NCBI GenBank assembly: GCA_030390025.1
Contig: CM059432.1
Coordinates: 53,012,001 to 53,076,000 of the forward strand
Source of the DNA: Squalus acanthias
Lineage: Eukaryota
Reading direction: 5' to 3'
DNA length: 64,000 bases
Shown here: one piece after another, positions 1 through 47,921 of the stretch
How the letters are laid out: each line of letters starts with the position of its first letter
Numbering within the stretch: the stretch's first letter is position 1
Position numbers and translations under genes: made by a program
Notes under the pieces: model-generated
The model's database searches: none
Seen by the model: the letters and a program-made list of their open reading frames with translations, nothing else
What the model was told of the DNA's origin: nothing

Positions 1-1563
1 GCATTTTCTAGTCAAGTGCCTTAATAGGAAGGTCACCAAACACTTTTATGGCAGAGTGGGTGCCGATTGTGAGATCTGTTGACTATGTTTTAGGAGAGTA
101 TCACCAGTTCTCTGTACAATTGTGCTGGCAGCGCTTTCCAGTATATAGTGTGTAGGGACCATCAACCAATTATGGCGCAATGGAGTGGGGGTGGTTGATC
201 GCGTTCTCGCTCGGTGAGGATTTGTTTGAGCCATTAAGGGTTTATTGGCTTCTTCTTGTGCACATTTGTCCTTTTCAGTTATGGCTTCTTCCTCTGTTTC
301 TGAACTTGTTCTTTGCAGCTACACTTCTGTAACATGCAGAGTCCATTGGAATCAGACAGGTTCTGCTCGCTTAAATGTGTTATGCATGCCTAGTATGGTG
401 ATCTTTTACTTAAAAGGTTTATAGTGAGATTTCTCCATATTCAGTGAGGGGCTGTCATGTAACGTTAGGTAATGCCCCATCCTAACCAATTTGTCACGTG
501 ACATTATGCTCACAGTGGCACCTACAGGTGCAATACCTCTGGAATCCTGAAACCACTCACTTTTAAAATATATAGATGAGAAACCTGGGTGACGTGTCAA
601 AGCTTATTGTGAAGGACACCAGAGGTTGAAAAGATTGATACTGTAGGAAAAAATCTGAGTAGATATTCCTTCTCTTGCAGGGAAAATAAAAGGGCTTGCA
701 CTTATCCTTTACAGCATCAACTCCCCACTCAAATTTGTAATAGTAAACTTCAAAAGTTGTTTCAGCTATTATATCCACACCAGAAAGTTAAACTATTTTC
801 AGAAGAATGTCTGCAACAGAGTCTTCTGGCTTACAAACCTTGGAGCATGTTAAGCACAACAGCCATAGTGGCAGTGTAGAAGGGTAAATCTGTCCACATT
901 ATGATAACCAATGAGACTCTATCCATGACTTAGCTGGTAAAGATAGAAAATACATGTTGAATTCCTGATCTGTGCTGAGTAAGCGCATCAGAGTGGCAGT
1001 ATTTGCACAAGAATTAGCCTCAGCTGCCTCGGACTAGATAGGAAAAGAATTGGCCAGGATTCCTACTTCCAACCATTATCCAGTAAATTCTATGGGAAAG
1101 CGGCATGTGTAATCAGCTGATTAGGACAGGACTGGGCTCGGTTGTAATACCATTTGTCTATACTCATACACGAAGAGCAGCCAGTTGGACAAAGTGCAGC
1201 AGGGTTCCAAACAATTGCAGTACTGTATACCAGCAAAAATTAATAAATGCAATGTCCTATATCACTTCATGAATATACATCATAATGAAAAGAATCTATG
1301 CTTATTTCGTAGAACGATTTAGGTATTCAGGCAAGTTTTACATTTTATTTCAATTTCACAACTAATAATTACACATTCTGTTGCATCCAAAAATCTCATT
1401 GCAAGATATCAGTTGCTTGCAGTTGACACAGTTTGTGTCATTTAGGCCAGTTACACAACACACCAGACTCAAGCTACATACAGCAAGTACAATACATATG
1501 ATTTTTGTTCAGACTCAGCCAAGCAACTAGATGAAGTATCCAATGTTATGTAAAATTTGGCCA

Positions 1564-1765
1564 TGATGCGGAGATGCCGGTGTTGGACTGGGGTAGACAA
1601 AAGTGAGAAGTCGCACAACACCAGGTTATAGTCCAACAGTTTTATTTGAAATCACAAGCTTTCGGAGCTGCTGCTCCTTCACCTGACGAAGGAGCAGCAG
1701 CTCCGAAAGCTTATGATTTCAAATAAAACTGTTGGACTATAACCTGGTGTTGTGCGACTTCTCAC
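1564..1765. mobile_element. Palindromic Penelope-like (pLTR-derived) element in SMCHD1 intron 2
   Basis: ~80-bp inverted arms. 18-bp TSD ttatgtaaaatttgRcca (1546-1563 / 1766-1783). Hammerhead core CTGACGA...GAAA. Same family as 33274-33722. Confidence 0.8.
1679..1716 (+). ncRNA. Minimal type I hammerhead ribozyme motif, with a helix I mismatch
   Basis: tcac-CTGACGA-a-ggagc-agca-gctcc-GAAA-gc-t-t-atga. The intact family version ends in gtga. Confidence 0.6.
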
Positions 1766-1828
1766 TTATGTAAAATTTGACCACTGCATCTCACCAAAAA
1801 GAACAATCTGAGTTTCAAGTAAGCTTAC

Positions 1829-1904
1829 CGAAGTTTTGATTTTTGATTTCTTTCCTATTTGTCGTCGTAATTACAAAGTTCTTTTCTGTAGTAATGTCAA
1901 AAGC
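1829..1904 (-). CDS. SMCHD1: SMCHD1 coding exon 2 (AFDITTEKNFVITTTNRKEIKNQNF), 76 bp. Not in the ORF track.
   Basis: Acceptor ttttgtttttcttcag and donor G|gtaagc. Phase-0 start joins exon 1 in frame. Peptide matches the SMCHD1 motif EKFVITTTSRKEI. Confidence 0.92.
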
Positions 1905-3189
1905 CTGAAGAAAAACAAAAGCAGTGTTAAGCACACGAAAAGTCAGTTTTGCTTGACCAGAGTCCTCTTCACTTCAAATGAAATACATCTTCCACACACC
2001 AAAGAAGTATAGCCTAATTTGACAGGCTCAGTGAAAACCATACATTGACCATGCACATGAAAAAGTCTTCATGATGCTGTATTTAGGCGATGCCCAGTAA
2101 GGTCTACCAATCCACACTGTATGATGCTCAGGATCTACACCACTGTACCAGTTCATTAACCCGAAATTTAAAAAAAACTAGTTAACACCAAGTCCCACCC
2201 TAAACTATGCCCTTGCAGGAACTGTGAGGAGAAATGGGTAGGATCGCGGCATATGGATAATGCCCATCATTCAAAGCATGAAGACCACCCTAGCAAATAA
2301 TTTATTTGTTTCATTTCAAATCCTGTGCACACCATTGCAGCACACCAATATAGTACAAACTCAAAGGGCGTGGGGGAAGAAGGGAAAGCACCATTGTAGA
2401 AGTGATACCACCAGCTGGTTCAGCCTAATATGCCAAAGGTCTTCTGATGTGCAACAATTAAACCCAAACAAATACTTTTAAGTAAAGGTTTGAGAATTGA
2501 CCCATATGATAACCTTACATATGCTATCAATGGGAATCAGACTGAGAAGTGCTCAGGAAGTAGCTATGAAATCAGCCTTATCCTGTCGCTGGTGGTAGTG
2601 TAGGATACATTCAACCAATTATTTGTCCACACAACAGCTAAGGGCCCTGTAAGCATCTACATAGTGGAAACAATGTTCCATTTCTGACTCAAAACAATTG
2701 GACAACAATTTCCAATTCAAACAAAAGCAGGACAGCTTAGGTAAAAACTTCGAAAATCATTTGGTCAGCCTTGCGACCAAACTTGGCTGATTTACAATTT
2801 AAGGACGGACAGTGCACTAACTCTGGAAGTCTAAACTAATGTGAAGTACAGTTCTTCATGCAAGAAACTCACACAAAGAAGAGTGGGTACATTAACTTAA
2901 GAATTAAAAGTCCGCTTTGGGAACCAGCAACAGCCTAACTGAGCACAATTTTCAAATAGTTTGTGTAAAATGGGATACTAATGATCTAAAGGCAAATCTG
3001 TGATTGAAGACAGAAATCTCCACAACATGACAGCTGATAGGTCCCCTCCAAATCCCAGAGGCAGGGCACTGAGGCCAATCGCTGCCTCATTCAGCTAACT
3101 GAGTCTGGATTTGGTGTCAAACTGCAGGAGACAATTACACAGTGAACCACCAGGCCACTTACACATTGTGCGGTTAATGGATCGCCCCT

Positions 3190-3325
3190 TGTACATCATT
3201 AACAAATTGCTGGAAAATACTTTGCTTCAAATTGTATCTCTTAATCTCTTGAACTTGCTGGCCAATTTGCACATTAATAACGGCGTGCGTCGTTAACAGT
3301 TGTTTTTATAGCAAGATCCAGCCCA
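3190..3325 (-). mobile_element. MITE/DNA-transposon end, same family as 25484-25870
   Basis: Reverse complement (gggctggatcttgct...gttaacgacgcacgcc...agcaagttcaagagattaagagat) aligns by eye with 25484 onward. Confidence 0.55.
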
Positions 3326-3404
3326 ATGTTTCCACTTGCGGGAGAGTCCAAAACTAGAAGTCATATTAGATAGTCACCAATAAATCCAATAAGGAACGGG
3401 AAAG

Positions 3405-6400
3405 GTTAATCCAGAGGCCTGGACTAATGATCCAGAGATGGGAGTTCAAATCCCACCACGGCAGCTGGGGAATTTAAATTCAGTTAATTAAATTAGTCTA
3501 GAATAAAGTGCTAGTATCAGTAATGGTGACCATGAAACTATCGGATTGTCGTAAAAACTCATCTGGTTCACTAATGTACTTTAGGGAAGGAAATCTGCCG
3601 TCCTTACCTGGTCTGGCCTATATGTGACTCCAGACCCACAGCAATGTGGTTGACTCTTAACTGCCCTCTGAAATGGTCTAGTAAGCCACTCAGTTGTAAA
3701 AAAAAGCGCTACGAAAAATAATAAAACCGGATGGACCACCCGTAGCGACCTCGGCACCGGCTACGGACACAACAGCACACCCAGCGCAGTCAACCCTGCA
3801 AAGTCCTCCTCACCAACATCTGGAGGCTTGTGCCAAAATTGAGAGAGCTGTCCCACAGACGAGTCAAGCAACAGCCTGACAATCATACTCACAGAATCAC
3901 ACCTTTCAGCCAATGTCCCAAACTCCTCCATCACCATCCCTGGGTATGTTCTGTCCCACCAGCAGGACAGACCCACCACGGGTGGTGGCACAGTGGTATA
4001 CAGTCAGGAAGGAGTGGCCCTGGGAGTCCTCAACATTGACTCTGGACCCCATGAAGTCTCATGGCTTCAGGTCAAGCATGGGCAAGGAAAACTCCTGTTG
4101 ATTACCACCTATCGCTCTCCCTAAGCTGATGAATCAGTACTCCTCCATGTTGAACATCACTTGGAAGCACTGAGAGTAGCAAGGGCACAGAATGCACTCT
4201 GGGTAGGGGACTTCAAAGTCCATCACCAAGAGTGGCTCGGTAGCACCACTACTGACCGAGTCCTGAAGGACATAGCTGCCAGTCTGGGCCTGTGACAGAT
4301 GGTGAGAGAACCAACACGAGGGAAAAACCTACTTGACCTCATCCTCACCAATCTACCTGTCATAGATGCATCTGTCCATTGCAGCATTGGTAGCAGTGAC
4401 CAATGCGAAGTCATTGTGGAGACGAAGTCCCGTCTTCACACGGAGGACACCCTCCATCGTGTTGTGTGGCACTACCACCGTGCTAAATGGGATAGATTCA
4501 GAACGATAGATTCATGAGGTGCTGTGGGCCAGCAGCAGCAGCAAAATTGTATTCCACCACAATCTGTAACCTCATGGCCCGGCATATACCTCATTCTACC
4601 ATTACCATCAAGGCAGCAGACCAGCCCTGGTTCAATAAGGAGTGTAGAAGAGCATGCCAGGAGCAGCACCAGGCATACCTAAAAATGTGGTGCCAACCTG
4701 GGGAAGCTGCAACACAGGACTACATGCATGCTAAAAAGCAGAAGCAGCATTCTATAGACAGAGCTAAGCGATCCCACAATCACCGGATCAGATCAAAGCT
4801 CTGCAGTCCTGCCACATCCAGTTGTGAATGGTGGTGGACCATTAAACAACTAACGGGGGGTGGAGGCTCCGTGAATATCCCCATCCTCAATGATGGTGGA
4901 GCCCAGCACGTGAGTGCAAAAGACAAAGCTAAAGATTTTGCAACCATCTTCAGTCAGAAGTGCCGAGTGGATGATCCATATCGACCTCCTCCTGAGGTCC
5001 CCACCACCACAGAAGCCAATCAATTCGATTCACTCCACGTGATATCAAGAAACTACAGCAAAGGCTGTGGGCCCCGACAACATCCCGGCTGTCATGCTGA
5101 AGACTTGCGCTCCAGAACTAGCCGCGCCTCTAGCCAAGCTGTTCCAGTACAGCTATAACACTGGCTTCTATCCGACAATGTGGAAAACTGCCCAGGTATG
5201 TCCTGTCCACAAAAAGCAGGACAAATCCAATCGGGACAATTACCACCCCATCAGTCTACTCTCAATCATCAGTAAAGTGATGGAAGGTGTCGCCGACAGT
5301 GCTATCAAGCAGTACTTACTCACCAACAACCTGCTCACTGATGCCCAGTTTGAATTCCGCCAAGACCACTCGGCTCCAGACCTCATTACAGCTTTGGTCC
5401 AAACATGGACAAAAGAGCCGAATTCCAGAGATGAGGGGAGAGTGACTGCCCTTGACATCAAGGCAGCATTTGACCGAGTGTGGCATCAAGGAGCCCTAGT
5501 AAAACTGAAGTCAATGGGAATCAGGGGGAAAACTTCCACTGGCTGGAGTCAAATCTAGCACAAAGGAAGATGGTTGTGGTGGTTGGAGGTCAATCATCAC
5601 AGCCCCAGGACATCACTGCAGGAGTTCCTCAGGGCAGTGTCCTAGACCCAACCATCTTCAGCTGCTTTATCAATGACCTTCCCTCCATCATAAGGTCAGA
5701 AGTGGGGATGTTCAGTGCCATTTGCAACTCCTCAGATAATGAAGCAGTCCATGCCCTCATGCAGCAAGATCTGGACGACATTCAGGCTTGGGCTGATAAG
5801 TGGCAGGTAACATTCGCGCCACACAAGTGTCAGGCAATTACCATCTCCAACAAGCGAGCGTCTAATCACTGCCCCATGACATTCAATGGCATCACCATCG
5901 CCAAATCCCCCACCATCAATATCCTGGGGGTCACCATTGACCAGAAACTTAACTGGTCCAGCCACATAAATACTGTGGCAACAAGAGCAGGTCAGAGGCT
6001 GGGTATTCTGCGGCGAGTGTCTCAACTCCTGACTCCCCAAAGCCTTTCCACCATCTACAAGGCACAAGTCCGGAGTATGGTGGAATACTCTCCATTTGCC
6101 TGGATGAGTGCAGCTCCAACAACACTCAAAAAGCTCGTCACTATCCAGGACAAAGCAGCCTGTTTGATTGGCACCCCATCTACCACCTTAAACATTCACT
6201 CCCTCCACCACCGGCGTACCGTGGCTGCAGTGTGTACCATCTACAAGATGCACTGCAGCAACTTGCCAAGGCTTCTTCGGCAGCACCTCCCAAACCCGCG
6301 ACCTCAACCACCTAGGAGGACAAGGGCAGCAGGCGCATGGGAACACCAAATCCTGCAAGTTACCCTCCAAGTTACACAACATCCTGACTTGGAAATATGT

Positions 6401-6594
6401 CGCTGTTCCTTTATCGTCGCTGGGTCAAAATTCTGGAACTCCTTCCCTAACAGGACTGCGGGAGTACCTTCACCACAAGGACTGCAGCGGTTCAAGAAGG
6501 CGGCTCACCACCACCTTCTCAAGGGCAATTAGGGATGGGCAATAAATGCTGGCCTTGCCAGCGATGCCCACATCCCAGGAATGAATAAAAAAAA
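3405..6594 (+). mobile_element. Near full-length CR1/L2-group LINE with frameshifted APE endonuclease + RT, a SINE-like 5' end and no ORF1. Antisense in SMCHD1 intron 1.
   Basis: EN motifs (QQPD..ILTES, EPTRGKNLLDLILTN, SSD). RT motifs ([28 protein letters not shown]). 3' tail with aataaa and poly-A. 3405-3696 matches the SINE at 14215. Confidence 0.9.
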
Positions 6595-10118: not shown

Positions 10119-10424
10119 ACAACAGATGGGTGGTTCTCCAGTTGAAATCATGGAGCTCCTCTGGTAGAGGCTCTGTCACTGGCCTACTTAAAGTCCGAGC
10201 ACTTATCCCAGTAGATTCTTTTGAAGAACATGGCACAGTACACTTGCTGGCATTTTTTCATCCTCGATAAGTCAGCCCCTTAACATGAGGGGCACGTCAT
10301 CAGAAAATACCAAAAGATGGTCTCCACGCCCAATCCACACAGAGACAGTCCCAACAGCCTCTTGTGCAGTGGTAGAATCAGGATCAAGAAATGTTAACTG
10401 TGCTTCATTTTAGCTTCCTTGCCA

Positions 10425-10820
10425 TCTTAAACATTCACTCCCTCCACCACTGCCGCACCGTGGCTGCAGTATGTACCATCTACAAGATGCACTGCAGCAA
10501 CTCGCCAAGGCTTCTTCAACAGCACCTCGCAAACCCGTGACCTCTACCACCTAGAAAGACAAGAACAGCAGGCGCATGGGAACACCATCACCTCCAAGTT
10601 ACCCTCCAAGTCACACACCTTCCTGACTTGGAAATATATTGTGTTCCTTCATCGTCGCTGGGTCAAAATGCTGGAACTCCCTCCCTAACAGCACTATGGG
10701 AGTACCTTCACCACACGGACTGCAGTGGTTCAAGAAGGCGGCTCACCAGCACCTTCTCAAGGGCAATTAGGGATGGGCAATAAATGCTGGCCTTGCTAGC
10801 GATGCCCACATCCCAGTAAC
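10425..10820 (+). mobile_element. 3' fragment of the 3405-6594 LINE family
   Basis: Closely matches 6188-6580. Confidence 0.9.
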
Positions 10821-11517
10821 AAATAATAATTTTAAAAATCCCCATTGTACACATTTTTTTCAGAAAATAATGGTGAGATTGAGCATGGTCATTTTGATAT
10901 AAGTTAAGACATTTAAGAAAAATGTTCAAAGGTTGTGACCATTATATGGTACCCCATGTAGATATATTCCTTATGACTGAAAACAGATAAGTTTAAACCC
11001 TTGTGGATCATTTCTGCCACTGATGTATTTTCATTTAAAATTCAGCTTCACCACTCCTCAGTGATTTAAGGGAGCAACAAGCACTACCGAGCCCAATTTC
11101 GCCCCACAGTGTTGCTCTGAGGAGATGCTGTTCATCAAGAGCAGTATCTTTATTACTTCCATCAAAATACACAGCGAACAAAACTGTTCACTTTGGCAAT
11201 GACTGCAAGCATATTCAGCTTACTTTTCCTTCATGACAAATGAAGAATCTCAAAGATTGCTTGTTTGAATAAATCTTTACAATTGCAAAGTAATACCAGA
11301 AATGAATTCAAATATAATTTTTTATATAAACCACACAAGCAGAAAATACAGACAACTTTTTAAACTTAATGTAGTCAATTGTTGTACCTGAATTCAAAAC
11401 TCAGAGGTTATACACATAAGAAGCATTTAAAAAAAAGTTTTAACAAAAAAGGGCCATCACAATAAAAATTGTTAAGTATACAAAAATATGAAGCTATACA
11501 AGGAGTCGTGTATATCA

Positions 11518-13889: not shown

Positions 13890-15440
13890 GAGAAAGACAA
13901 TGATGAAGATCAGGAGGAAGCACTGGGGGATGGACCATAGGTAAGGCACCATAGGTGCTGGCTGTCACTGACTCAGAGATACCCTCAATAGTGTATCTGT
14001 AGATCTAGGTGTGTCTATCTGAACTTGTCAAGATGCCAGTGCACTCAAGGCTGAGCATCGTACAGGAGACCATTACAAAGTTGTGTCAAGTGCTTGCGTC
14101 AGACCCAGAGCCTGCATCAACCCAAGCCATAGCACTTCCAGTCGCAATGAAAAAGACAGTCAATTTAATATCCACTGGATCGTTTCAGGCAGCATCAGGG
14201 GATGTGTCACATTAGGACGGGTGCGGTAGCATAGTGCTTATGTTACTGGAACTAGTAATCCAGAAGGCCTGGGCTAATGATCTGGAGACAATGGGTTCAA
14301 ATCCCATCACAGCAGCTGGGGAATTTAAATTCAGTTAATTAAATAAATCTGGAATAAAAAGCTAGTATGGTGACCATGAAACTACCGGACTGTCATAAAA
14401 ACCCATCTGGTTCACTAATGTCCTTTCTTTAAGAAAGGAAATCTGCAGTCCTTACCTGGTCTGACCTATATGTGACTCCAGACTCACAGCAATGTGGTTG
14501 GCTCTTAACTGCCCTCTGAAATGGGCACTAAGCCACTCAGTTGAATAAGGTGGCTCACCAACACCATCTCAAGAGCAATTAAGGATGGGAAATAAATGCT
14601 GGCCTTGCTAACAAAGCCCACATCCTGTGAATGAATATAAAAAAAAATCACAATCCACCATTCAATAAAGCAGATTACATATACCCTGTGGGGTAGCAGT
14701 CCAGTTCATCTCCTTTCCAATGGACATTTCAATCAGCAGGAAAGAGTGATACAGCAGGCCACTGAGGGGAAATATATCACTATATTACATAGAATTACAT
14801 ATAATTCTATATGTCCACCCTTGCAATATCTAGTGAACTATGTGAACAAAAAAGAGCATCACTTCTTTAATTTAATTCACTTCATAATTCTCATATGCAG
14901 TGCCAGGGATATCATTTTGTATTTGAATGCCTACTACCCAGGAAGTTGTCATGATTTCTTCATCTTAAGACGATCAAGAATCCCAGCACTGTTCACTGGC
15001 TCAGGCCAGGAAAACCTTTTGACTGATCAGGGACAAAGACTACCCTTACATCAGTGGCTCATGACCCACTGCGAAACCCCAGAACACCGCAAAAAATAAG
15101 ATATAATGAGGTGTAGTATACCACAAAGATAGTGGTGGAGCAGACCATTTGCATGCTAAAGGTTTAATTTAGGTGTTCTGATTAATTAGGGGGCACCCAC
15201 CAGTATAATCCTACCAGGGTCTCCAGGATCATTTTGGACGGCTGCATGCTTCAGAATTTAGATATCAGAAAATACTTAATCTAAAAGACCTGGAGAAAAA
15301 AGTAACAAGGGTGACCCAGACCAGCTGGATCTGTAGCTTTACAAGACCCAACAAGAGGAAGACACAGACCAGGAGGATGAACCATTGCAGCTGCAAGCCA
15401 GATAAGAGACCTACTAATAAGAGACAACTTCAGATAAAAA
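13890..15440 (+). pseudogene. Decayed PIF/Harbinger (HARBI1-like, DDE_Tnp_4) transposase, interrupted by a SINE
   Basis: Collinear motifs across frameshifts: RLS..QETITKLCQVL, ALPVA..TV...TGSFQAASGD, YVNKK, YPGSCHD..ILR.S, D.DYP...WLMT, RYNE...T..VVEQT...LK..FRC, QYNPTRVSRII...CMLQN, then an acidic tail. Confidence 0.85.
14215..14647 (+). mobile_element. Full-length tRNA-headed Deu-domain SINE (SacSINE1/AmnSINE-like)
   Basis: A-box-like tagcatagtg and B-box ggttcaaatcc. Core tttagggaaggaaatctgc..ccttacctggtctg.cctatatgtgactccagac. LINE-type tail and poly-A. Confidence 0.85.
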
Positions 15441-21174: not shown

Positions 21175-21580
21175 TTTTTTTTTATTTGTTTATGGGATGT
21201 GGGCGTCGCTAGCAAGGCCAGCATTTATTGCCCATCCCTAATTGCCCTTGAGAAGGTGGTGGTGAGCCACCTTCTTGAACCACTGCAGTCCGTGTGGTGA
21301 TGGTACTCCCACAGTGCTGTTAGGTAGGGAGTTCCAGGATTTTGACCCAGCAATGATGAAGGATCGATGATAAACTTCTAAGTCAGGATGGTGTGTGACT
21401 TGGAGGGGAACTTGGAGGTGGTGGTGTTCTCATGCGCCTGCTGTCCTTGTCCTTCTGGGTGGAAGAGGTTGCAGGTTTGGGAGGTGCTGCCGAAGAAGCC
21501 TTGGCGAGTTGCTGCAGTGCCTCTTGTAGACGGTACACACTGCAGCCACGGTACGCCGGTGGTGGAGAGTGTGAATATTT
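21175..21580 (-). mobile_element. 3' fragment of the 3405-6594 LINE family
   Basis: Reverse complement of the same tail (LHHRRTVAAVCT...). Confidence 0.9.
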
Positions 21581-21902
21581 AATAATACTTTTATGTGTAA
21601 ATAATTTGAAAGAACATTAATGTTTGAACATGTCAGGTTTTTCATTAGCTTTCCGTGAATTGTTATTACTGTGAATTTGTTAATTGTGAAGGCTAAAGTC
21701 TAATGCCGCAATTAGTATTAAAATCAAGATTGCTATGGCCACAACTGAGAGCATGAATTATTATACAATTGTGGAAACAGTTCTGCTTCTTCGAACGAGA
21801 ACAGGGCAGAGGAAAATTGTGCCATACTTGTGCATCATAACATTTGTTTTGCTTTCAACTAACTGTTTTGGTAAATGTTTTACATCCAAGTCAAATGCCA
21901 TC

Positions 21903-21968
21903 AGTCTCTGGAATAGGGCTTGAACCCATGATTTTCTGACTGAGAGGTGAGAGTGCTACCACTGAGCC
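21903..21968 (-). mobile_element. tRNA-derived SINE head fragment. A related fragment lies at ~57860-57980.
   Basis: Reverse complement ggctcagtggtagcactctc...gggttcaagccc contains A- and B-box-like sequences. Confidence 0.6.
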
Positions 21969-22528
21969 TAGGCAGACATGGCTGCATATACTGACACCAC
22001 TATTCCTGGCCAGAATAGAGATATTTGAGTAATTCCCCCATCAAGCACGTCTGCTGTAAGTGACTGTGATTGATTTTATGCACATAATTTGTGATATGTA
22101 ACTATCCTCCACTCACTGCATTTTGCTGGAGAAATCACCTTGTTTTTATTGGGAGATGGTTCATGAGTTCTGGTTGTGTTCATGAGTTTTGTTCATGAGT
22201 TCTGTTTGCAGCTGTTCCTAGAGACTCTTTTTAAATAGGCTCTGTAAATAGACTTTGAAAGCTTTATTGTTTGCTGAGTACATAAACTTTGTTTGAAGTA
22301 AAATGGACTGTTTGCCTGTAAGTCCCATCGCGCCTTCAACTCGTTGGCTGACACAATGCAACACATTGGCTGACACAGTGGTGTCAATAGACACTCTGGG
22401 CAGACACTTAGATTCCAATAAACATATCCACATCAATGGGCTGTGGCAACTGCTCACAAAACCCCAGAACTTACTCTTCTGGCAGTTCTGACTCGTTTTC
22501 CAGAGGTTTTCACAGAGACCCACTCACA

Positions 22529-25208
22529 GGCCAAGATTTTCCGGGTGGTCAGCGGGCACGATCGGTGGCGGGTCGGGTGGGAAAGTGTTTTTTTTCCCCC
22601 AACCCCGCTGTGAAGCTGTCGCCACACGCCTTTCCCCGACATCGGGTCTGTCAGCGCTGAGCAGACCCGACACGCAGCGGAAAGGGACCCAATTCAGGTA
22701 ATTATGACCTTGTTTAGAGATCATTAAGAATACATTTGAGCTCATCTTTTGATTTTACGTGCTCACCCACGGGTCCTCGCTGCTCGGGAATCATGTCTGT
22801 TAAGCTGAGGCGGGAGATGAATGGCCATCTGATTACTTGACAGCTGCAAATGTGCTATAAAAGCTCCCACCTCACAGCTGTTCACTTTCCAAGCTCAGAA
22901 GCTGTTGCTCACTGCATTTGGAAGACAGATCGAGCTTTATGCAGGTTGCAAGTGTTTGGAGCAAACTCGCTACCAGTGTCACCTCATTGGAACAACCTCT
23001 CTCACCATTGACAGATCACTTCTGTCATCTCAAGTTCATCTGCCATCTATTCCATCAGCATGGGTACGGTTTATAGTCTCTCACCTTGGTCCTCAGAATC
23101 TGACCACGATCAGCAGCACCAAGCACACCAGCAGCACTAACCTTCTCCGCAATCAACTGATGTTGCACAGGACACAGGGCCTCAGCACCTGACCACATTG
23201 CTGCCCGGGAGGCCAGATTTACTTCATTTGATGCTGTACACCCTGGCTGCCACATGATGCGCCAAGTTGGTACCACCCCACACCAACATCATAAAGCATC
23301 CCTACATTGACCAAGCCATTCCTTTCACACTCATCACAAATGCAGGGGGTACCGTTATGTCTCACTATTCACTGCAACTCACTAAGCCACTTCCAAAGGT
23401 GCACACAAATCTGTCCAAGAACGCAAAGTGTTGAAAATAAAGGTTTCAATGTTTGACACATTAACAGAAACTTTACATGAACATTGCATAAAACACCCAA
23501 GTGCCTACCCTTGTGATTGGACTAGGATGAGGGTGAGTGTGAGGGGTGGCTAGTGAGATGGGGAAGTGATAATGTAGATAGAGAGGGATGGGTGGAGGTC
23601 CAGGGTAAGTTGGTGTGAATAAGGATGTGCAGGAGTAGGGTAGGGAAGGCAGAGTCATAGAGTCATACGGCACAGAAGGGGGCCATTCGGCCCATCAAGT
23701 CCATGCCGGCTCTCAGTAGAGCAATCCAGTCAGTCCCATTCCCCCGCTCTATCCCCATAGCCCTGCATGTTTATTTCCCTCAAGTGCCTATCTTGTCTCC
23801 CCTTGAAAATATTGAGTGTCTCCGCTTTATAAAGGTTCAGCATAACTTCTCTACTTTTGTACTCAATACCTCTATTTATGAAGCCCACGATCCCATATGC
23901 TTTGCTAACCACTCTCTCAATATGTCCTGCCACCTTCAGGGACCTATGCACATTAACTCCCAGGTCCCTCTGTCCCTGCACACTCTTTAAATCTGTGCCA
24001 TTAAGTGTATATTGCCTCTCCCTGTTCCTTCTGCCAAAATGCATCACCTCACACTTCTCTGTATAAAATTCCATCTGCCACTTGTCTGCCCATTCTGCTA
24101 GCCTTTCTATGTCCTGTTGCAGTCGATTGGTATCATCCTCACTGTTTGCCACACCCCCAAGTTTGGTGTCATCGGCAAATTTAGAAATTCTACTCTGCAT
24201 TCCAATATCCAGGTCATTTACATATATCAAAAAAAGCAGTGGCACCAGCACTGACCCTCGGAACACCACTGTCTACCATCCTCCAGTCTGAAAAACAGCC
24301 ATTTACCACAACTCGCTATTTTCTGTCCTTAAGCCAATTCCTTATCCAAGCTGCCACTGACCCACCTATTCCATGAGCCTCAATTTTGTTAACCAGCCTT
24401 CTATGTGGTTCTTTGTCATACATCTTCCGAAAATCCATGTAGACAACATCCATTGCATTCCCTTCATCAATCCTCCCTGTTACTTCATCAAAAAATTCAA
24501 TTAGATTAGTCAAATACGATCTGCCTTTTACAAATCCGTGTTGGCTCTCCTTAATTAGCTTAAACCTCTCCACGTGCCCGTTAATTTTTCCTTGATTATT
24601 GTTTCTAAAACTTTACCCACCACTGATGTTAAAGTGATGGGGATGTGATGAGAGGCACAGCAAGATGAGGTTGAGTGTGGTTTTGTACTAACGTTTCATG
24701 ATCTACTGAGATAATTGAAACATTTGTAGCACTGCACCCAGGTCCTCCTGACCAGATCCCTGCTTGTGCCCTCCTCTGCAGTGTGCAACCAGGCTGCGTT
24801 GCTGTCCTGGGGAGGTCTCTTCCACCCATGGGAAGGGAAGAGGACCTCCCTGCGTGCTGTGATTCCCTCCATAAGCATATGAAGGGAGTCATGGGAGAGC
24901 CTGGGTGCAGCCCTGTGCCTTTGTGCAGTCATTGTCAGTGTTTGCAGCATCTCAATGCTGTAGAACACTGACAACACAAATGTCAAAATAAATTTCGAGA
25001 TGGTCCCTTTAAGGAAATCGGCTGATGACGCGTCATCAAATGACGTCACCAGACCCGCTTCCTCGAATTGGCCGGGAAACGCGCTGGACTTAACAGGCCC
25101 CATCAAGGTAAATTCATTTCAGACAGTGGGATGGAGCCAGCAGCAGGGTCAGGACCCGCCACCAACGTCGCCTGCCACAGACCCGCTGAGGTCAGCAAAA
25201 TCGCAGCC
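22529..25208 (-). mobile_element. Non-autonomous Harbinger element (copy A) with a Myb/SANT exon on the minus strand. A CR1 is inserted at ~23655-24628.
   Basis: TIRs ggccaagatttt / aaaatcgcagcc. ACA TSD. Peptide APRLSHDSLHMLMEG..ARREVLFP...AW..AEE..SR...RTWVQC.K.FN.L. Confidence 0.85.
23655..24628 (-). mobile_element. CR1 LINE fragment, internally deleted
   Basis: SQHGFVKGRS, KFADDTKLGG and a CR1 tail. Confidence 0.9.
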
Positions 25209-35106: not shown

Positions 35107-38100
35107 ACATACGAACATACGAATTAGGAGCAGGAGTAGGCCACTCGGCCCTTCGAGCCTGCTCCGCCATTCAGTAAGATCATGGCTGATCCGATTACTC
35201 CACATTCCCGCCTACCCCCGATAACTTTTCACCCGCTTGCTTACCAAGAATCTATCTACCTCTGCCTTAAAAATATACAAAGACTCTGCTTCCACCGCCC
35301 TCTGAGGAAGAGAGTTCCAAAGACTCACGACCCTCTGTGAGAAAAAATTTCTCCTCATCTCTGTCTTAAATGGGCGACCCCTTATTTTTAAACAGTGACC
35401 CCTAGTTCTAGATTCTCCCACAAGAGGAAACATCCTCTCCACATCCACCCTGTCCCGACCCCTCAGGATCGATCTTATATGTTTCAATCAAGTCACCTCT
35501 TACTCTTCTAAACTCCAGCGGATACAAGCCTAGCCTGCCCAACTTTTCCTCATAAGACAACCCGCCCATTCCAGGTATTAGTCTAGAAACATAGAAACAT
35601 AGAAGATAGGAGCAGGAGTAGGCCATTCGGCCCCTCGAGCCTGCTCCGCCATTCGATGAGATCATGGCTGATCATCCAAACTCAGTACCCTGTACCTGCC
35701 TTCTCCCCATATCCCTTGATACCTTTAGCTTTAAGAAATATATCTAACTCATTCTTGAATATATTTAATGACTTGGCCTCAACTACCTTCTGTGGTAGAG
35801 AATTCCACAGGTTCACCACTCTCTGGGTGAAGAAATTCTTCCTCATTTCTGTCCTAAATGGCTTACCCGTTATCCTTAGATTATGACCCCTGGTTCTGGA
35901 CTCTCCAACCATCAGGAACATTCTTCCTGCATCTAGTTTGTCCAGACCTGTCAGAATTTTATTTGTTTCGATGAGATCCCCTCTCATTCTTCTATACTCC
36001 AGCGAGTATAAGCCCAATTGACCCAATCTCTCCTCATATGTCATTCCTGCCATCCCAGGTATCAGCCTTGTGAATCTTCGCTGAACTCCTTCCATGGCAA
36101 GAACCTCCTTCCTCAGATAAGGCGACCAAAACTGCACACAGTACTCAAGGTGTGGTCTCACCAAGGCCCTGTACAACTGCAGCAGGACATCCCTGTTCCT
36201 ATACTCAAACCCTTTCGCTATGAAGGCCAACATACCATTTGCCTTCTTCACCGCCTGCTGCACCTGCATGCTTACTTTCAGCGACTGGTGCACAAGGACA
36301 CCCAGGTCTCGTTGCACTTCCCCTTCTCCCAATCTATTGCCATTCAGATAATAGTCTGCCTTTCTGTTTTTGACACCAAAGTGGATAACCTCGCACTTAT
36401 CCACGTTATATTGCATCTGCCACGCTTCTGCCCACTCACCCAACCTGTCCAAATCATCCTGGAGTTTCTCAGTATCCTCCTCGCAGCACACACTCCCACC
36501 CAGCTTTGTGTCATCTGCAAACTTGGAGATATTACATTTAGTTCCCTTATCTAGATCATTAATGTATATTGTGAATAGCTGGGGTCCAAGGACCGATCCC
36601 TGCGGTACCCCACTAGTCACTGCTTGCCACTCGGAAAAAGACCCATTAATTCCTACTCTCTACTTTCTGTCCGCCAACCAGTTCTCTATCCAAGTCAATA
36701 CCTTGCCCCCAATCCCATGTGCCTTAACTTTACACGCTAATCTCTTATGCGGGACCTTATCGAAAGCCTTTTGAAAGTCCAAATACACCACATCTACTGG
36801 TTCTCCCTTATCTATTTTCCCAGTTACATCCTCAAAACATTCCAGTAGATTAGTCAAGCACGATTTACCTTTTGTAAATCCATGTTGACTTTGTCCGATC
36901 CTGTCACTGTTTTTCAAGTGCTCAGCTATTACATCCTTTATAATGGACTCTAGCATTTTCTCCAATACCGCTGTCAGGCTTACCGGTCTGTAGTTCCCCG
37001 CTTTCTCTCTACCACCCTTTTTGAATAGTGGGGTAACATTGGCTACCCTCCAATCCATGGGTACAGTTCCAGATTCCATCGAATGTTGGAAGATGATCAG
37101 CAATGCATCTATTATTTCTAGGGCCACTTCCTTAAGTACCCTAGGATGTAGATTATCAGGCCCTCAGGCCTCTGAACTGCTTCCAACGCATTACATCCTT
37201 CCTTAAATAAGGAGGCCAATACTGTACACAGTACTCCAGATGTGGTCTCACCAATGCCCTGTATAACTGAAGCATAACCTCCCTACTTTTGTATTCAATT
37301 CCCCTCGCAATAAACGATAACATTCTATTAGCTTTCCTAATTACTTGCTGTACCTGCATAGTAACCTTTTGTGATTCATGCACGAGCGCACCCGGATCCC
37401 TCTGCATCTCAGAGCTCTGCAATCTCTCACCATTTAGATAATATGCTTATTTTTTATTCTTCCTGCCAAAATGGACAACTTCACATTTTCCCACATTATA
37501 CTCCATTCGGCAGATCTTTGCCCACTCACTTAACCTATCTATATCCCTTTGTAGCCTCCTTATGTCCTCTTCACTATTTACTTTCCTACCTATCTTTGTG
37601 TCATCAGCAAATTTAGCAACCATACCTTCGGTCTCTTCATCCAAGTCATTTATATAAATTGTAAAAAGTTGAGGCCCCAGCACTGATCCCTGTGGCACAC
37701 CACTCGTTACATCTTGCCGATCAGAAAATTACCCATTTATGCCTACTCTCTGTTTCCTGTTAGCTAGCCAATCTTCTATCCATGCCAATATGTTACCCCC
37801 AACACCATGAGCTTTTATTTTCTGCAATAACCTTTGATGTGGCACCTTATCAAATGCCTTCTGGAAGTCTAAGTACAGTACATCCACCGGTTCCCCTTTA
37901 TCCACAGCACATGTTACTTCTTCAACAAACTCCAATAAATTGGTTAAACATGATTTCCCTTGTACAAAACCATGTTGACTCTGCCTGATTACTTTGAACT
38001 TTTCTAAGTGCCCTGCTATAACGTCTTTAATAATAGCTTCTAACATCTTCCCTATGACAGATGTTAAGCTAACTGGCCTGTAGTTTCCTACTTTCTGTCT

Positions 38101-38945: not shown

Positions 38946-40851
38946 GGTCATATATGGTCCAACAATATTTCATGTTTGTACAATTTTCTCACTTAGTCTA
39001 AATTGCCAATAAGCTTCCATAAAGTAAAATACGTCCAGAATGTATACAAGGGTCTCAGCAGCTCTACAAATTCTGCCTCCCAGCTGCAAAGTCATCCTCC
39101 TGTCATACCCTCCAGTGAATTATGACCATTTTTATTGCAGCCTCTTTTATTGCAGCCTCAGGGCTTCAATCTCTGATTTTACAGCTGTGTTTCCATTTGA
39201 AGTGAAATGGTATAGTAGTGAAAAAAGGAGGGTGAGAGCCACACAGAAAGAAAGGGAAGGAGAGACAGGGAGTGAAAATGTATAAGTGATCTATGACGAG
39301 AGTGCAAGACACACAGAAAAAGAGTGGAAGAGAGGAAAGGATAGACTTACAGAAAGAGAGAGAGGAAAAGGGGGGGGGGGGGGAAATCAGACCAAGAGGA
39401 CAATGAGATAAAAAAAGAAAGACTTGCATTTATAACGCTTTTCACGACCACCGGACGTCTCAAAGCGCTTTGCAGCCAATGAATTACTTTTTTAGAGTGT
39501 AGTTACTGTTGTAATGTGGGAAAGTGTGTGGGAGCCATACAGAGAAAGAGGCAAAGGGGACAACAGAAAGAAAGTAAGATAAACAAAGTCAAAGAGATGG
39601 AAATAATTAAAGAGTAGGAGCCAAGCAGAGGGACAGTTACAGGAAGAGATACAAATTTAATTTTTAATTTTTTTGTGAACAGTGCCATGGAGACAACTAG
39701 TATATTGTAAAATGAATGGATAGTTGGGAATGAGTAAAGCTCTAACTTCAGGACTTCAAGCTTTGTTCTTTAGTTTATTACATCACGTGAGCCTATTGAT
39801 TAAATTGCAATCTTAGACAGTCCCAACCATTCACAATTTTACATGCTTAAAATTATGAATCCAGAACAGATATTATAGATCACTATACTCTCAGTGTACT
39901 AGGAGACAAGCCCATCTCCCAGTGTGCCATTTGTCTTGCTGTCACAATGTGATGATATCTCAATGTCCATATGATCTGTTACTTTTATTTGCTATGACTT
40001 GAAGTTATTGTACCTTTTAATGACAAGAAGCCTGTGGATATCTTTCACTCTCTCATTTTGCTAACTTTCAGATGATTCAAGGGATGCTGGTTGAAGATGG
40101 CAGTAAGAAAGGACAACCTTATTTTAGTAGTTGATGGCTGCAGGTGCTAAAGAAGTGCAGGTGCTCAAGAAGTTGCTGTAGATGAATGGTGAAGGAAAAT
40201 GAAAAGTTGATGATATGTGTAGAAGAGGCAGTTGCAGTGGTTTTAGGCTGATCTTGTCAGATTACTGTCAACTGTATGAACTGCGACAGGCTCGGAAAAT
40301 GATGGATCATGGGCCCTGTCATAACTGCAACTTCCTCTGGTCAGACATTTCCTGTGTGCAGTCTGCTTTTTGTTGTAAGTAGCTAATTCTGTTTTCTGCT
40401 GGTTGTACAAGAAAAGTTGATCTAGATTTCAACTCACAGAAGTAGATATGGAAATGTCAAGTTATTTACACAAGATGAAAGAAACTGCAAAATGTAAATT
40501 ACTGTAGAGATGTATACAAAAATTCAAAAACTTCTGTTTAATCTGTTTTTAGCTTTCCTTTTTTATTGCAATTATCTTTTGGTTGCGATACATTGACATT
40601 TGTTGCAGTCATAGTGTGCTGCGTACACGGCATAGCAAACTGGATACGCCATGATACTGAGTGGCTTCGGCAATCACACCGGAGGTTGATTTCAGTGAGT
40701 GGCAGTGATTGTGTACTGTTGTGTTTACTGTTGGTTTCACCAAAAGAGCTGTGGGGGGATGGAGCATGCTCCGGATGCTTGATGTATGAGCGGTATTGTT
40801 GAAGCCCCACTTGCATTGGGCCGACAATAGATTCTTTGAAATCTGCATTGT

Positions 40852-41924: not shown

Positions 41925-43410
41925 GGCCGCGATTTCCCCTACCTCGGCGGGTTCGTGGCGGACGACGTCGGTGGCGGGTCCCGGCCTCGCTGCCGGCTCT
42001 AGCCCGCTGTTCAAAATGATTTTCCTCTGATCGGGCTTGTTAAGCCCGCCCAGCGCGTTTGCCGGCCAATTGAAGGAAGTGGCTCTGATGACATCATTTG
42101 ATGACGCGTCATCAGCCGGTTTCCTTAAAGGGACCATGCGCAAATTGATTTTGACAGTTGTTCTGTAAGTGTTCTACAGCATTGAGGTGCTGCAAACACT
42201 GAGGTGCACGGCTGCACCCAGGCTCTCCCATGACTCCCTCCATATGCTTATGGAGGGAGTCAAAGCACGCAGGGAGGTTCTCTTCCCTTCCAATGGGTGG
42301 AAGAGACCTCCCCAGGAGATCAACACAGTCTGGTTGCACATTGCACAGGAAGATACAAGCAGGGATGTTGTCAGGAGGACCAGGCTGCAGTGGCACAAAC
42401 CTTTCAATGATCTCAGTAGATCACGAAACGTTACTGCAAAGTCACACTCAACCTCAACCTGCTGTACTACTCATCACATCCCCATTACTCTGCCTTCCCT
42501 ACCCTACTCCTGCACATCCTTACTCACACCAACTTACCTTGCACCTCCACCCATCCCTCTTTATCTACATTATTACTTCCCCATCTCACTAGCCACCCCT
42601 CACACTCACCCTCACCCTAGTGCAATCATACCAACTAACAACACACAAGGGTAGGCACTTGGGTGTTTTATGCAATGTTCATGTAAAGTTTCTGTTAATG
42701 TGGTGTCAAACATTGAAATCTTTATCTTCAACACTTGGACAGATCTGTGTGCACCTTTGGAAGTGGTTTAGTGAGTTGCAGTGAATGGTGAGACATAACA
42801 GTACCCCCCACAATGGTGACGAGTGTGAAAGGAATGGCTTGGGCATTGTAGGGATGCTTCATGGTGTTGGTGTGGGGTGGTGCCAACCAGGCATATCATG
42901 TAGCAGCCAGGGTGTACAGCATCAAATGAAGTAAATCTGGTCATTGTGAGGCCATCCCTGGTGTCCTAGGCAGCAATGTGATCGGGTGCTGATGCCCTGT
43001 GTCCTGTGCAGCATCAGTTGATTGCAGACAAGGTTGGTGGTGTTGTTGGTACTGCTGGTGCTGCTGGTGTTGGGGCTGATTGTGGTGGAATTCTGAGGAC
43101 CAAAGTGAGATAGTTTCAAGGGCACCGATGCTGATGGAATATATGGCAGGTGAACTTGAGATGCCAGAAACAATCTGTCAATGGTAAGAGAGGTTGTTCC
43201 AATGAGGTGACACTGGATAGAGAGTTTACTCCAAACACTTGCAACCTGCATAAAGCTCAATCTGTCTTCCAAATGCAGTAAGCAACAGCTTCTGAGCTTG
43301 GAAAGTGAACAGCTGTGAGATGGGAGCTTTTATAGCACATTTGCAGCTGTCAAGTAATGAGATGATTCCACGGTCATACAACTCCTGACCTGCTTACCTG
43401 ACGTGATTCC
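41925..43410 (+). mobile_element. Non-autonomous Harbinger element (copy B) with Myb exon on the plus strand. Right end truncated.
   Basis: Starts ggccgcgattt. Inverted homolog of copy A. ORF 42169-42654 contains the Myb-like motif. Confidence 0.85.
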
Positions 43411-43764
43411 TGAGCTGGTACAGAAGGGAAAATAAGTCAAACTAAGGGTCCTGCTTTTGAATTCAAACCTATTTGCATTGAAACCACTCCATAATTTGTC
43501 ATTGAAGGAATTTAGCAGAGCAGGAATCCTACTCCAGGCTCTCACTGCAGGCAATAAAACAGATATTTATTATTTATTATTAATAATACATTTATTATTT
43601 TTGATTAGACTACATATATTTATGTATAAGATGACAACAAGCATTTATACAGTGCCTTTCATGTGGCACTTTACATAGGGAGGAGAGAAAAATTAGATGA
43701 GAGGAATAAAGGAATGGACAATGAATAATGGTGGAAGAGATACCCAGAAGCTTGGTCAGAAAAG

Positions 43765-45653: not shown

Positions 45654-47921
45654 GGCCAGAACTTTGAAGGCGCTCGGTGTGCGGATTTGGAGGTGGGTCC
45701 GCTGTCAAAATCAAAAAGAGGAGGGATATACTTACATTGCAGGGTGTTCAGCGAAGGTTCACTAGGTTGATTCCTGAGATGAAAGGGTTGTCTTATGGGA
45801 AAAGGTTGAGCAGGTTGGGCCTATACTCATTGGAGTTTAAAAGAATGAGAGGTGATCTTTTTGAAGCATATAAGATTCTGAGGGGACTTGACAGGGTAGA
45901 TGCAGGGAGGATGTTTCCCCTCATGGTGGAATCTAAAACTAGGGGGCATAGTTTCAGGATAAGGGGTCTCCCATTTAAAATGGAGATGAGGAGGAATTTC
46001 TTCTCTCAGAGGGTCGTGAATCTTTGGAATTCTCTACCCCAGAGAACTGTGGAGGCTGAGTCAGTGAATATATTCAAGGCTGAGATAGGCAGATATTTGG
46101 GCTACAGGGGCGTCATGGGTTATGGGGAACAGGCAGGACAGTGGAGTTGAGGTCGATGATCAGCCATGATCTTATTGAATGGCGGAGCAGGCTCAAAGGG
46201 CTGAATGGCCTACTCCTGCTCCTATTTCTTATGTTCTTATGTATCCCGCTGTAAACCCGTCTCCTTGTCATTTTCCCAAGTATTGGGTCTGTCATCCCTG
46301 AACAGACCCGACACCAAGTGGCGGGTCAGCCAATTTAGATACTTAAAAGCTTGTTAAAAGGTAGTTAAACACCATTTTACCATGTACTTACCATTTTACC
46401 AGCCTTTCCACAAGTTTCCCGGAGCACAGGGATCACGTCAGGTAAGTAGATCGGTTGTCGTGTCAGCATGGAATGATTTACTAACCTGACATCTGCAAAT
46501 GGTCTATGAAAGCTCCCATTTCATAGATCTTCACTTTCCAAGGTTAGAAGCAGTTGCTTACTGCATTTGGAAGACAGATTCAGGTTGCAAGTGTTTGGAG
46601 CAAACTCTCTATCCAGTGTCACCTCATTGGAACAACCTCTCTCACCATTGACAGATCCCTTCTGTCATCTCAACCTCACCTGCCATCTATTCCATCGGTG
46701 CCCTTGAAAAAATCTTACCTTGGTCCTCAGAATCCCAACACGATCAGCCCCAACACCACCATCACTGGGCACACCAGCAGCACCTACATCCACACCAACC
46801 TTCTCCGCAATCAACTGATGCTGCACAGGGTATCAGCACCTGACCACATTGCTGCCCGGGAGGCAAGGGATGGCCTCACCATGTCCAGATTTGCTTCACT
46901 TAACACTGTACACCCTGGCTGCCACATGATGCACCAGGTTGGCACCACCCCACACCAGCACCATAAAGCATCCCTGCAATGTCCAAGCCATTCCTTTCAC
47001 ACTCATCACCATTGGGGCGGGGTGGAGGGACGTTATGTCTCACCATTCACTGGAACTCACTAAGACACTTTCAAAGGTGCACACAAATCTGTCCAAGAAG
47101 GCAAAGACAATAAGGGTTTCAATGCTTGACAACACATTAACAGAAACTTTACAGGAACATTGGCTAAAGCATCTACCTAAAGTGCCTACTTTTGTGTGTT
47201 GTTAGTTGGTATGATTGGACAAGGATGAGGGTGAGTGTGAGGGGTGGCTAGTGAGATGGGGAAGTGATCACGTAAGTAGAGAGGGATGGGTGGAGGTGTA
47301 AGGTAAGTTGGTGTGAGTAAGGATGAGCAGGAGTAGGGTAGGGAAGGCAGAGTGATGGGGATGTGATGAGTGGCACAGCAGGATGAGGTTGAGTGTGGCT
47401 TTGCAGTAACGTTTCGTGATCTACTGAGATCATTGAAAGGTTTGTGCCACTGCAGCCTGGTCCTCCTGACGACATCCCTGCTTGTGCCCTCCTGGGCAAT
47501 GTGTAACAAGGCTGCGTTGGTCTCCTGGGGAGGTCTCTAGGAAGGGAAGAGAATCTCCCTGTGTGCTGTGACTCCCTCCATAAGCATATGGAGGGAGTCA
47601 TGCGAGAGCCTGGGTGCAGCCGTGCACCTTTGTGCAGTGCTTGTCAGTGTTGCAGCAGCTCAATGCTGTAAACCACTGACAGCAGAACTGTCAAAATGAA
47701 TGTGGACATGGTCCCTTTAAGGAAACTGGCTGATGATACGCATCAGATGACGTCATCAGACCCGCTTCCTTTTAATTGGCCGGGAACCTCGCACGGCGGG
47801 TTTAACAAGCCCAATCAGGGCAAAATCACTTGGAGGAGGCGGAATGAAGACGGGAGCGGGGTTTGAGGCTGCTGTCTGCTCCGGCCGCACCGGACTCGAC
47901 ACGGCTGGCGAAATCGCGGTC
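45654..47921 (-). mobile_element. Non-autonomous Harbinger element (copy C). A CR1 3' fragment (+) is inserted at ~45716-46241.
   Basis: Ends ggccagaacttt / aaatcgcggtc. TAG TSD. Collinear with copy A. Confidence 0.8.

Follow-up and report, generated by a model that had tools for sequence, protein, structure and literature searches.

The stretch of Squalus acanthias DNA analysed here (64,000 nt, referred to as the window) carries a copy of a LINE that has a tRNA-like head. We favour, with moderate confidence, the reading that this is a dead copy of an ORF2-only Zenon element whose 5' UTR is made up of a head with A and B boxes and a non-Deu body, that the element is likely to use RNA polymerase III (Pol III) for its transcription and to be translated cap-free from a non-AUG codon, and that the free SINE of the same window is likely to be an internal deletion of the LINE. 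At the level of the Zenon family, our observations concern its structure, copy number, sharp 5' start, single long frame, depletion of T-runs and many deletion breakpoints. The features found in the window are collected in Table 1.

Table 1. Zenon-related and Deu-bearing features of the window
Feature	Position	Strand	Remarks
Dead tRNA-headed Zenon LINE copy	3407..6593	+	Corresponds to consensus nt 37-3309, 92.3% identity
tRNA-derived head, 3' part	3407..3465	+	A box (consensus nt 9-19) absent here
B box	3442..3453	+	A+B box pattern present in consensus
Conserved non-Deu body	3465..3698	+	Candidate internal translation-start element
A-rich linker and Arg-rich N-terminal extension	3699..3795	+	In ORF2 frame, without in-frame AUG
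APE endonuclease domain, broken	3796..4420	+	
Reverse transcriptase and C-terminal part of ORF2, broken	5043..6532	+	Stop at 6530-6532
3' end common to LINE and free SINE	6497..6593	+	Last ORF2 codons, 61-nt 3' UTR, poly-A
5'-truncated 3' fragment of the same Zenon LINE	10422..10829	+	
Free SINE	14219..14647	+	A box 14227-14237; B box 14293-14304; head and body joined to LINE 3' end at 14546/14547
5'-truncated 3' fragment of the same Zenon LINE	21177..21582	-	
Deu-bearing SINE fragments, probably SacSINE1	39407-39537, 57858-57988, 21902-22011	-	

An earlier note on this DNA had described 3405-3696 as collinear with a SINE at about 14255-14543, and on alignment 3407-3696 matched 14256-14543 at 86% over 298 nt; the 3' end of the LINE, also claimed to be shared, matched the SINE at 85% (6490-6594 against 14540-14644). 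The B box was found at 3442 as stated, the A box is indeed lost, the match to the consensus beginning only at nt 37, and the endonuclease does follow some 110 nt past the shared part (NIWGL motif at 3815), which leaves no space for ORF1. The reported frameshifts correspond to indels at 3742, 3881, 4505-4510, 5021, 5054 and 5535; the frame is also interrupted by stops (4122 and 4293), and the reverse transcriptase catalytic motif has been lost through a deletion of 21 nt at 5709. The impression that T-runs are scarce on the plus strand was likewise correct, the copy having one T4 run (4936) against 19 runs of four or more A. Since 3394-3400 resembles the first bases of the element, the A box of this copy may have been deleted rather than truncated. 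The sequence directly 5' of the element (3330-3404) looked by eye like a CR1 fragment, and BLAST of this stretch against a CR1 consensus gave no significant match.

The junction between the SINE-like part and the endonuclease is not confined to this locus. In the 3.7-Gb genome that holds the window, a 301-nt junction query returned 5,763 candidates, and the whole query was spanned by all 40 matches that were scored; an exact 26-nt variant of the head-to-ORF junction occurs in 1,030 copies. Exact 26-letter counts were 175 for an older head-end motif and 117 for the SINE junction of the window, and the reversed control words gave 0 matches each. The multi-copy junction rules out a one-off insertion of a SINE before a truncated LINE, and together with the consensus described below bears out, for a LINE present in many copies, the ORF2-only structure with a tRNA-derived head that the earlier note had described. 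Twenty junction loci were fetched, 17 of them picked for long heads and three unpicked; in 15 of them the alignment with the SINE head takes in the A box and reaches to a few bases from where the head begins, ten run unbroken to the poly-A end or stop at most 17 nt short of it, and their flanks are mutually unrelated.

The LINE consensus, made by script from 19 copies, has 3,309 nt, and copies are 91-96% identical to it. The tRNA-like head takes up about nt 1-95, with the A box at nt 9-19 and the B box near nt 72-83. A body of about 230 nt follows, reaching to nt 328, and as these 328 nt carry no long frame, the LINE is without ORF1. A single frame of 972 codons runs from nt 330, its first Met being codon 286, and encodes an APE endonuclease and a reverse transcriptase by Pfam (PF14529, PF03372 and PF00078); a 61-nt 3' UTR with a predicted stem-loop and poly-A complete the element. 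The Rfam tRNA model scored 24.8 bits (E 0.12) on the head of copy L049, where the gathering score is 29, ARAGORN called no tRNA gene in three copies, and two full-length copies matched no 5' self-cleaving ribozyme family at E up to 5. Consensus nt 28-66 (window 3407-3436) contain two similar hairpins in succession, of which the first is anticodon-like; the pairing of the second seemed by eye to be kept with changed letters in other sharks.

An alternative 5' end was looked for with two coding-only (endonuclease) queries, and 26 of 29 and 28 of 30 loci extended into the head, the second set including the query locus and a few loci recurring. The 5' end falls precisely on nt 1, which lies 8 nt ahead of the A box, in seven of the 29 and five of the 30 copies. 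No other 5' sequence was shared among the 29 and 30 loci, and none of the 59 had a conventional 5' UTR with ORF1. A stretch shared upstream of L094 and L101 proved to be the 3' end of an unrelated LINE; at L094 this 3' end, which we take to be RTE-like and which terminates in a GAA microsatellite, adjoins a Zenon copy that is cut at nt 328. Beside the ends of the nine full-length copies inspected, no target-site duplication was seen. Many LINE copies show large internal deletions with both ends kept (L251, L257, L262, L274, L309 and L317), and skipping during copying therefore seems frequent in the Zenon family.

Judged by its sequence, the element is an elasmobranch Zenon LINE (CR1 group) that has already been published as a consensus. 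PMC13343379 describes, from five elasmobranchs, Zenon elements that lack ORF1 and carry poly-A, and the published members (SquAca_Zenon-1 to -3, and CarCar, RhiTyp, ScyCan and HypSab Zenon-1; PMC13343379; 10.64898/2026.01.13.699120) resemble the window family in lacking ORF1, in having APE and RT domains and poly-A, and in their length of about 3.3 kb. Over the first 400 nt, SquAca_Zenon-1 of the supplement agrees by eye nearly letter for letter with the window family, and the published consensus sequences of three other sharks and one ray open, again by eye, with this head and with a body that hardly varies, those of the other sharks having canonical A and B boxes. In the main text of PMC13343379 the words "tRNA", "promoter" and "polymerase" have 0 occurrences and "SINE" has one; the head, the loss of T-runs, the missing AUG and the derived SINEs are undescribed in that main text. 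Literature searches for a tRNA-headed Zenon, T-run loss or SINE birth found none, and those for a tRNA-headed or Pol III LINE and for the free SINE found no description of either element; Repbase or Dfam may record the short forms. RTE-1_DAn, a LINE with tRNA-like sequence that receives a brief mention in PMC5786205, belongs to a clade different from Zenon.

The closest proteins are compact frames of 900-1,050 aa at 35-43% identity, and the element groups with these in a quick tree of 121 proteins in which no named Zenon reference was included. Half or more of the words of the element were present in 17 public runs from six organisms; three contig sets from public runs covered 30 of 30 bins and have the head joined to the tail at several positions. 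In one further organism, raw reads covered 26 of 30 bins, head included. The head profile had no match below E 3 in 80 metagenome loci, and the A+B box pattern was absent upstream of the 14 best metagenome loci; no tRNA was called in 31 metagenome loci. For similar heads on invertebrate relatives these three tests are weak, as only a few of the loci are close relatives with a 5' end. No relative was found among viral contigs. The low Phe content of ORF2 (1.9%) recurs in the relatives P0001, P0011 and P0031 (1.8-2.3%), of which P0001 also has an Arg-rich N-terminus, and these three are candidates for similar heads.

The assignment of the body to a Deu-like domain, made in the earlier note, had to be given up. 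A profile of 24 Deu-motif copies matches the element only at the B box (E 0.66), the published Deu motif has 0 matches in the 64-kb window at up to three mismatches, and the body is unlike the Deu alignment in the supplement of PMC7245038; by these profile, motif and alignment comparisons a Deu identity is ruled out. No likeness to the published Meta and UCON3 alignments was seen by eye. Elsewhere in the genome the Deu motif was found in 24 copies, in 17 of 130 loci. The Deu-bearing SINE of this genome is a separate, more abundant family, probably SacSINE1. Its consensus carries the published Deu sequence and has no significant match to the 3' end of our element, its best match (E 0.23) lying at the B box; over 30 matches to this family turned up in 200 kb of DNA picked evenly. 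SacSINE1, one of the DeuSINEs (PMC5499810), resembles the free SINE in having a tRNA head and about the same length and in belonging to the same shark genome; the Deu-bearing SINE differs from the Zenon element in body and tail and has the B box alone in common with it. An identity of the free SINE with SacSINE1 is not supported, the two being set apart via the Deu-bearing family. With a non-Deu body and a SINE that is by this comparison distinct from SacSINE1, the element has no implications for the origin of AmnSINE1 or for that of the Deu domain, on which it had been thought to bear.

The free SINE does share both of its ends with the LINE, as had been claimed. A consensus drawn from 30 free copies corresponds at 97%, on both sides, to LINE nt 1-328 joined to nt 3213-3309, and its tail starts inside ORF2. 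It is a non-coding short form with an A/B-box head and the 3' tail of its partner LINE, amplified as a family with the junction 328>3213; a second amplified short family has the junction 340>3201. When the first 30 of the 175 loci were chosen by the head-end motif alone, 17 entered ORF2 and 13 jumped to the 3' end, the latter at 12 breakpoint pairs (340-386 on the 5' side, 3066-3238 on the 3' side). Short forms account for 76 of 178 heads, in samples biased by the queries used, and have 29 nominal breakpoint pairs, some of which differ only by end noise as BLAST breakpoints are uncertain by a few bases. Their 5' breakpoints cluster at consensus nt 320-354. Fifteen diagnostic sites divide the heads into two types, an old one seen on 3 LINE and 37 short copies and a young one seen on 69 LINE and 29 short copies; mostly young copies came up when much older LINE subfamilies were searched for. 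Tails of the 328>3213 family were young in 10 cases, old in 0 and unclassed in 14, and those of the 340>3201 family were old in 17, young in 0 and unclassed in 9; the old SINE tails are without an old-LINE match, as none of the old-type LINE copies was recovered with its 3' end. The pairing of heads and tails fits derivation from the LINE of each period. Repeated internal deletion of the LINE is most likely the source of the free SINE and the other short forms, because the many breakpoints lie in LINE coding sequence and the old and young types of head and tail match. Of the two origins that the earlier note had offered, deletion from the LINE fits the SINEs of today, and capture of a tRNA or SINE head by the LINE is likely to be an ancient event.

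Comparable short elements are known. The Persaeus SIDEs of lepidopteran Zenon likewise hold both ends of a Zenon LINE and originated repeatedly, but as described in PMC6740152 they are without tRNA homology or a Pol III promoter, whereas the shark deletion product is structurally a tRNA SINE. Set against the definition of a SIDE, the shark short form takes both ends from one autonomous LINE, yet its A and B boxes are at odds with the absence of a small-RNA head or Pol III promoter by which Persaeus is defined. The bipartite SINEs derived from RTE and Vingi (PMC5786205) also combine both LINE ends; there, according to that paper, the tRNA head was added after the deletion, whereas in shark Zenon the head belongs to the LINE.

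The LINE consensus has 17 runs of four or more A, 11 of C and 9 of G, and 0 of T, where base shuffling predicts 4.0 (P 0.018). Runs of three or more T number 7 against 20.3 expected by base shuffle (0 of 2,000 as low), and in the ORF, with protein and codon usage kept, 5 against 11.2 (P 0.005); the corresponding value for four or more T in the ORF, 0 against 1.8, is not significant alone (P 0.12). Runs of A, C and G are not depleted, and the older head consensus is also without T4. As a control from the same genome we used the consensus of an abundant canonical CR1 family, whose copies are 96% alike (61900-63560, 35590-37164 and others in the window), and no depletion was seen (T3+ 25 against 26.3; T4+ 6 against 6.4). 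In 43 CR1-group frames of at least 550 aa from the 80 metagenome loci, T4+ runs number 6-49 and the observed/expected ratio for T3+ is at least 0.79, against 0.31 for the element, which is T-poor (19%) where most controls are far T-richer (22-36%) and a single one is from the same genome. Pol III transcription is known to stop at oligo-T, and TFIIIC to bind A and B boxes. Given that T-runs are depleted, that the element starts sharply 8 nt ahead of the A box and that forms made of head plus tail were amplified, Pol III is the likeliest polymerase of the Zenon element; since short forms with only head and tail amplify, the head alone would appear to drive transcription.

Nine AUGs lie in nt 1-345 of the consensus and none of them opens ORF2, which argues against scanning. 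In young copies a stop lies 3-6 nt upstream of nt 334-340, a conserved stretch. The linker that follows this stretch varies in length, yet it stays in the ORF2 frame in 57 of 65 copies; it was seen by eye to do so too in the published consensus sequences of four other species, and in the published SquAca_Zenon-1 row it is one base off frame. The linker is rich in three-base repeats and could keep the frame by slippage alone, and a subfamily with an off-frame linker has spread (four identical among seven copies off by one). Copies L037, L042, L082 and L108 belong to a subfamily with a 13-nt linker in which nt 334-340 are out of the ORF2 frame and in frame with a downstream AUG. Folding stability gave z +0.23 for the body, a signal that is not unusual, and -1.07 and -2.49 for the whole young and old head, respectively. 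We infer that initiation may be internal, at a non-AUG codon near nt 334; the three-base repeats, the off-frame subfamily and the folding result speak against this, as does a conserved off-frame AUG discussed below. The combination of Pol III transcription with such initiation we consider somewhat more likely than not.

Transcription by Pol II, from a promoter of its own or by host read-through, would be the conventional alternative; the head would then be a structured 5' UTR or a 5'-trimming signal, and the scarcity of T a matter of composition or of another constraint. LINEs are generally regarded as Pol II transcripts (PMC5786205), AATAAA occurs at consensus 3257 and 3300 beside a poly-A tail, the absence of T4+ loses significance under the strictest null, and the literature yielded no LINE precedent for a 3.3-kb protein-coding Pol III RNA. 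We nevertheless hold this to be unlikely, though worth keeping in view: the T3+ depletion is strand-specific, holds up under the codon-keeping null and is not seen in any of 44 control frames, two AATAAA and the nine AUGs fall within the 5' UTR, the A and B boxes remain canonical across sharks, and short forms of head and tail alone amplify. A similarly low probability attaches, for the translation step only, to a start at a conserved off-frame AUG just behind the linker, followed by frameshifting or reinitiation. That AUG is present in the consensus heads of all five published elasmobranch species and in 55 of 119 copies here, and a comparison by eye of the ray with the window family over the next 25 codons shows no clear favour for the ORF2 frame. 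It is, however, missing in 64 of 119 copies, old and young subfamilies included; no slippery heptamer was seen by eye; and of six subfamily variants outside CpG decay in the Arg-rich extension (nt 355-450), four are silent in the ORF2 frame against one in the AUG frame.

The order of events can also be turned round, the free SINE being older and independent, the LINE taking its head again and again (or recombination homogenising the two) and the short forms arising by template switching. The head must have been gained at some time, since it is absent from the first 400 nt of the published hagfish and coelacanth Zenon consensus sequences and the ends of lepidopteran Zenon are described without a Pol III promoter (PMC6740152). 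Exchange of SINE modules is well described, and a discrete short donor RNA could explain why the 5' breakpoints cluster within about 35 nt. Such an order is nonetheless improbable in our judgement, as the short forms retain, to either side of the join, pieces of LINE-specific linker and ORF2 coding sequence that differ in length, the LINE junction is about ninefold commoner than the SINE junction of the window, and one identical head-to-ORF junction recurs in the five published species.

Under the reading that we prefer, with Pol III transcription, internal initiation and deletion from the LINE, TFIIIC would bind the A and B boxes and Pol III would begin at nt 1 and traverse a 3.3-kb body cleared of oligo-T terminators. 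The conserved body would bring ribosomes near nt 334 for a cap-independent, non-AUG start, and the ORF2 protein would bind the 3' stem-loop and copy the RNA by target-primed reverse transcription. A jump from the 3' end to just behind the body would at one stroke yield a SINE, a short element furnished with promoter and tail, and at least two products of this kind have been amplified. The head was probably gained from a tRNA or a SINE in the ancestor of sharks and rays. We put forward the full scheme tentatively, and at slightly less than an even chance: an uncapped 3.3-kb LINE messenger made by Pol III, with an IRES-like body and a non-AUG start, kept across sharks and rays and recurrently giving rise to tRNA SINEs by one deletion. 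In the usual division LINEs are transcribed by Pol II and SINEs by Pol III, the latter being assembled from separate parts. If the scheme is true, a LINE with a SINE-type 5' end would break this division of polymerases. It would also supply a naturally occurring messenger RNA of Pol III from a vertebrate, and show a way in which new SINEs can arise in one step.

The window contains a further repeat family, at 46280-47840, 42011-43416 and 22641-23658, which looks like a non-autonomous DNA transposon. Its consensus measures about 1.8 kb, contains no long frame and has ends that look inverted.
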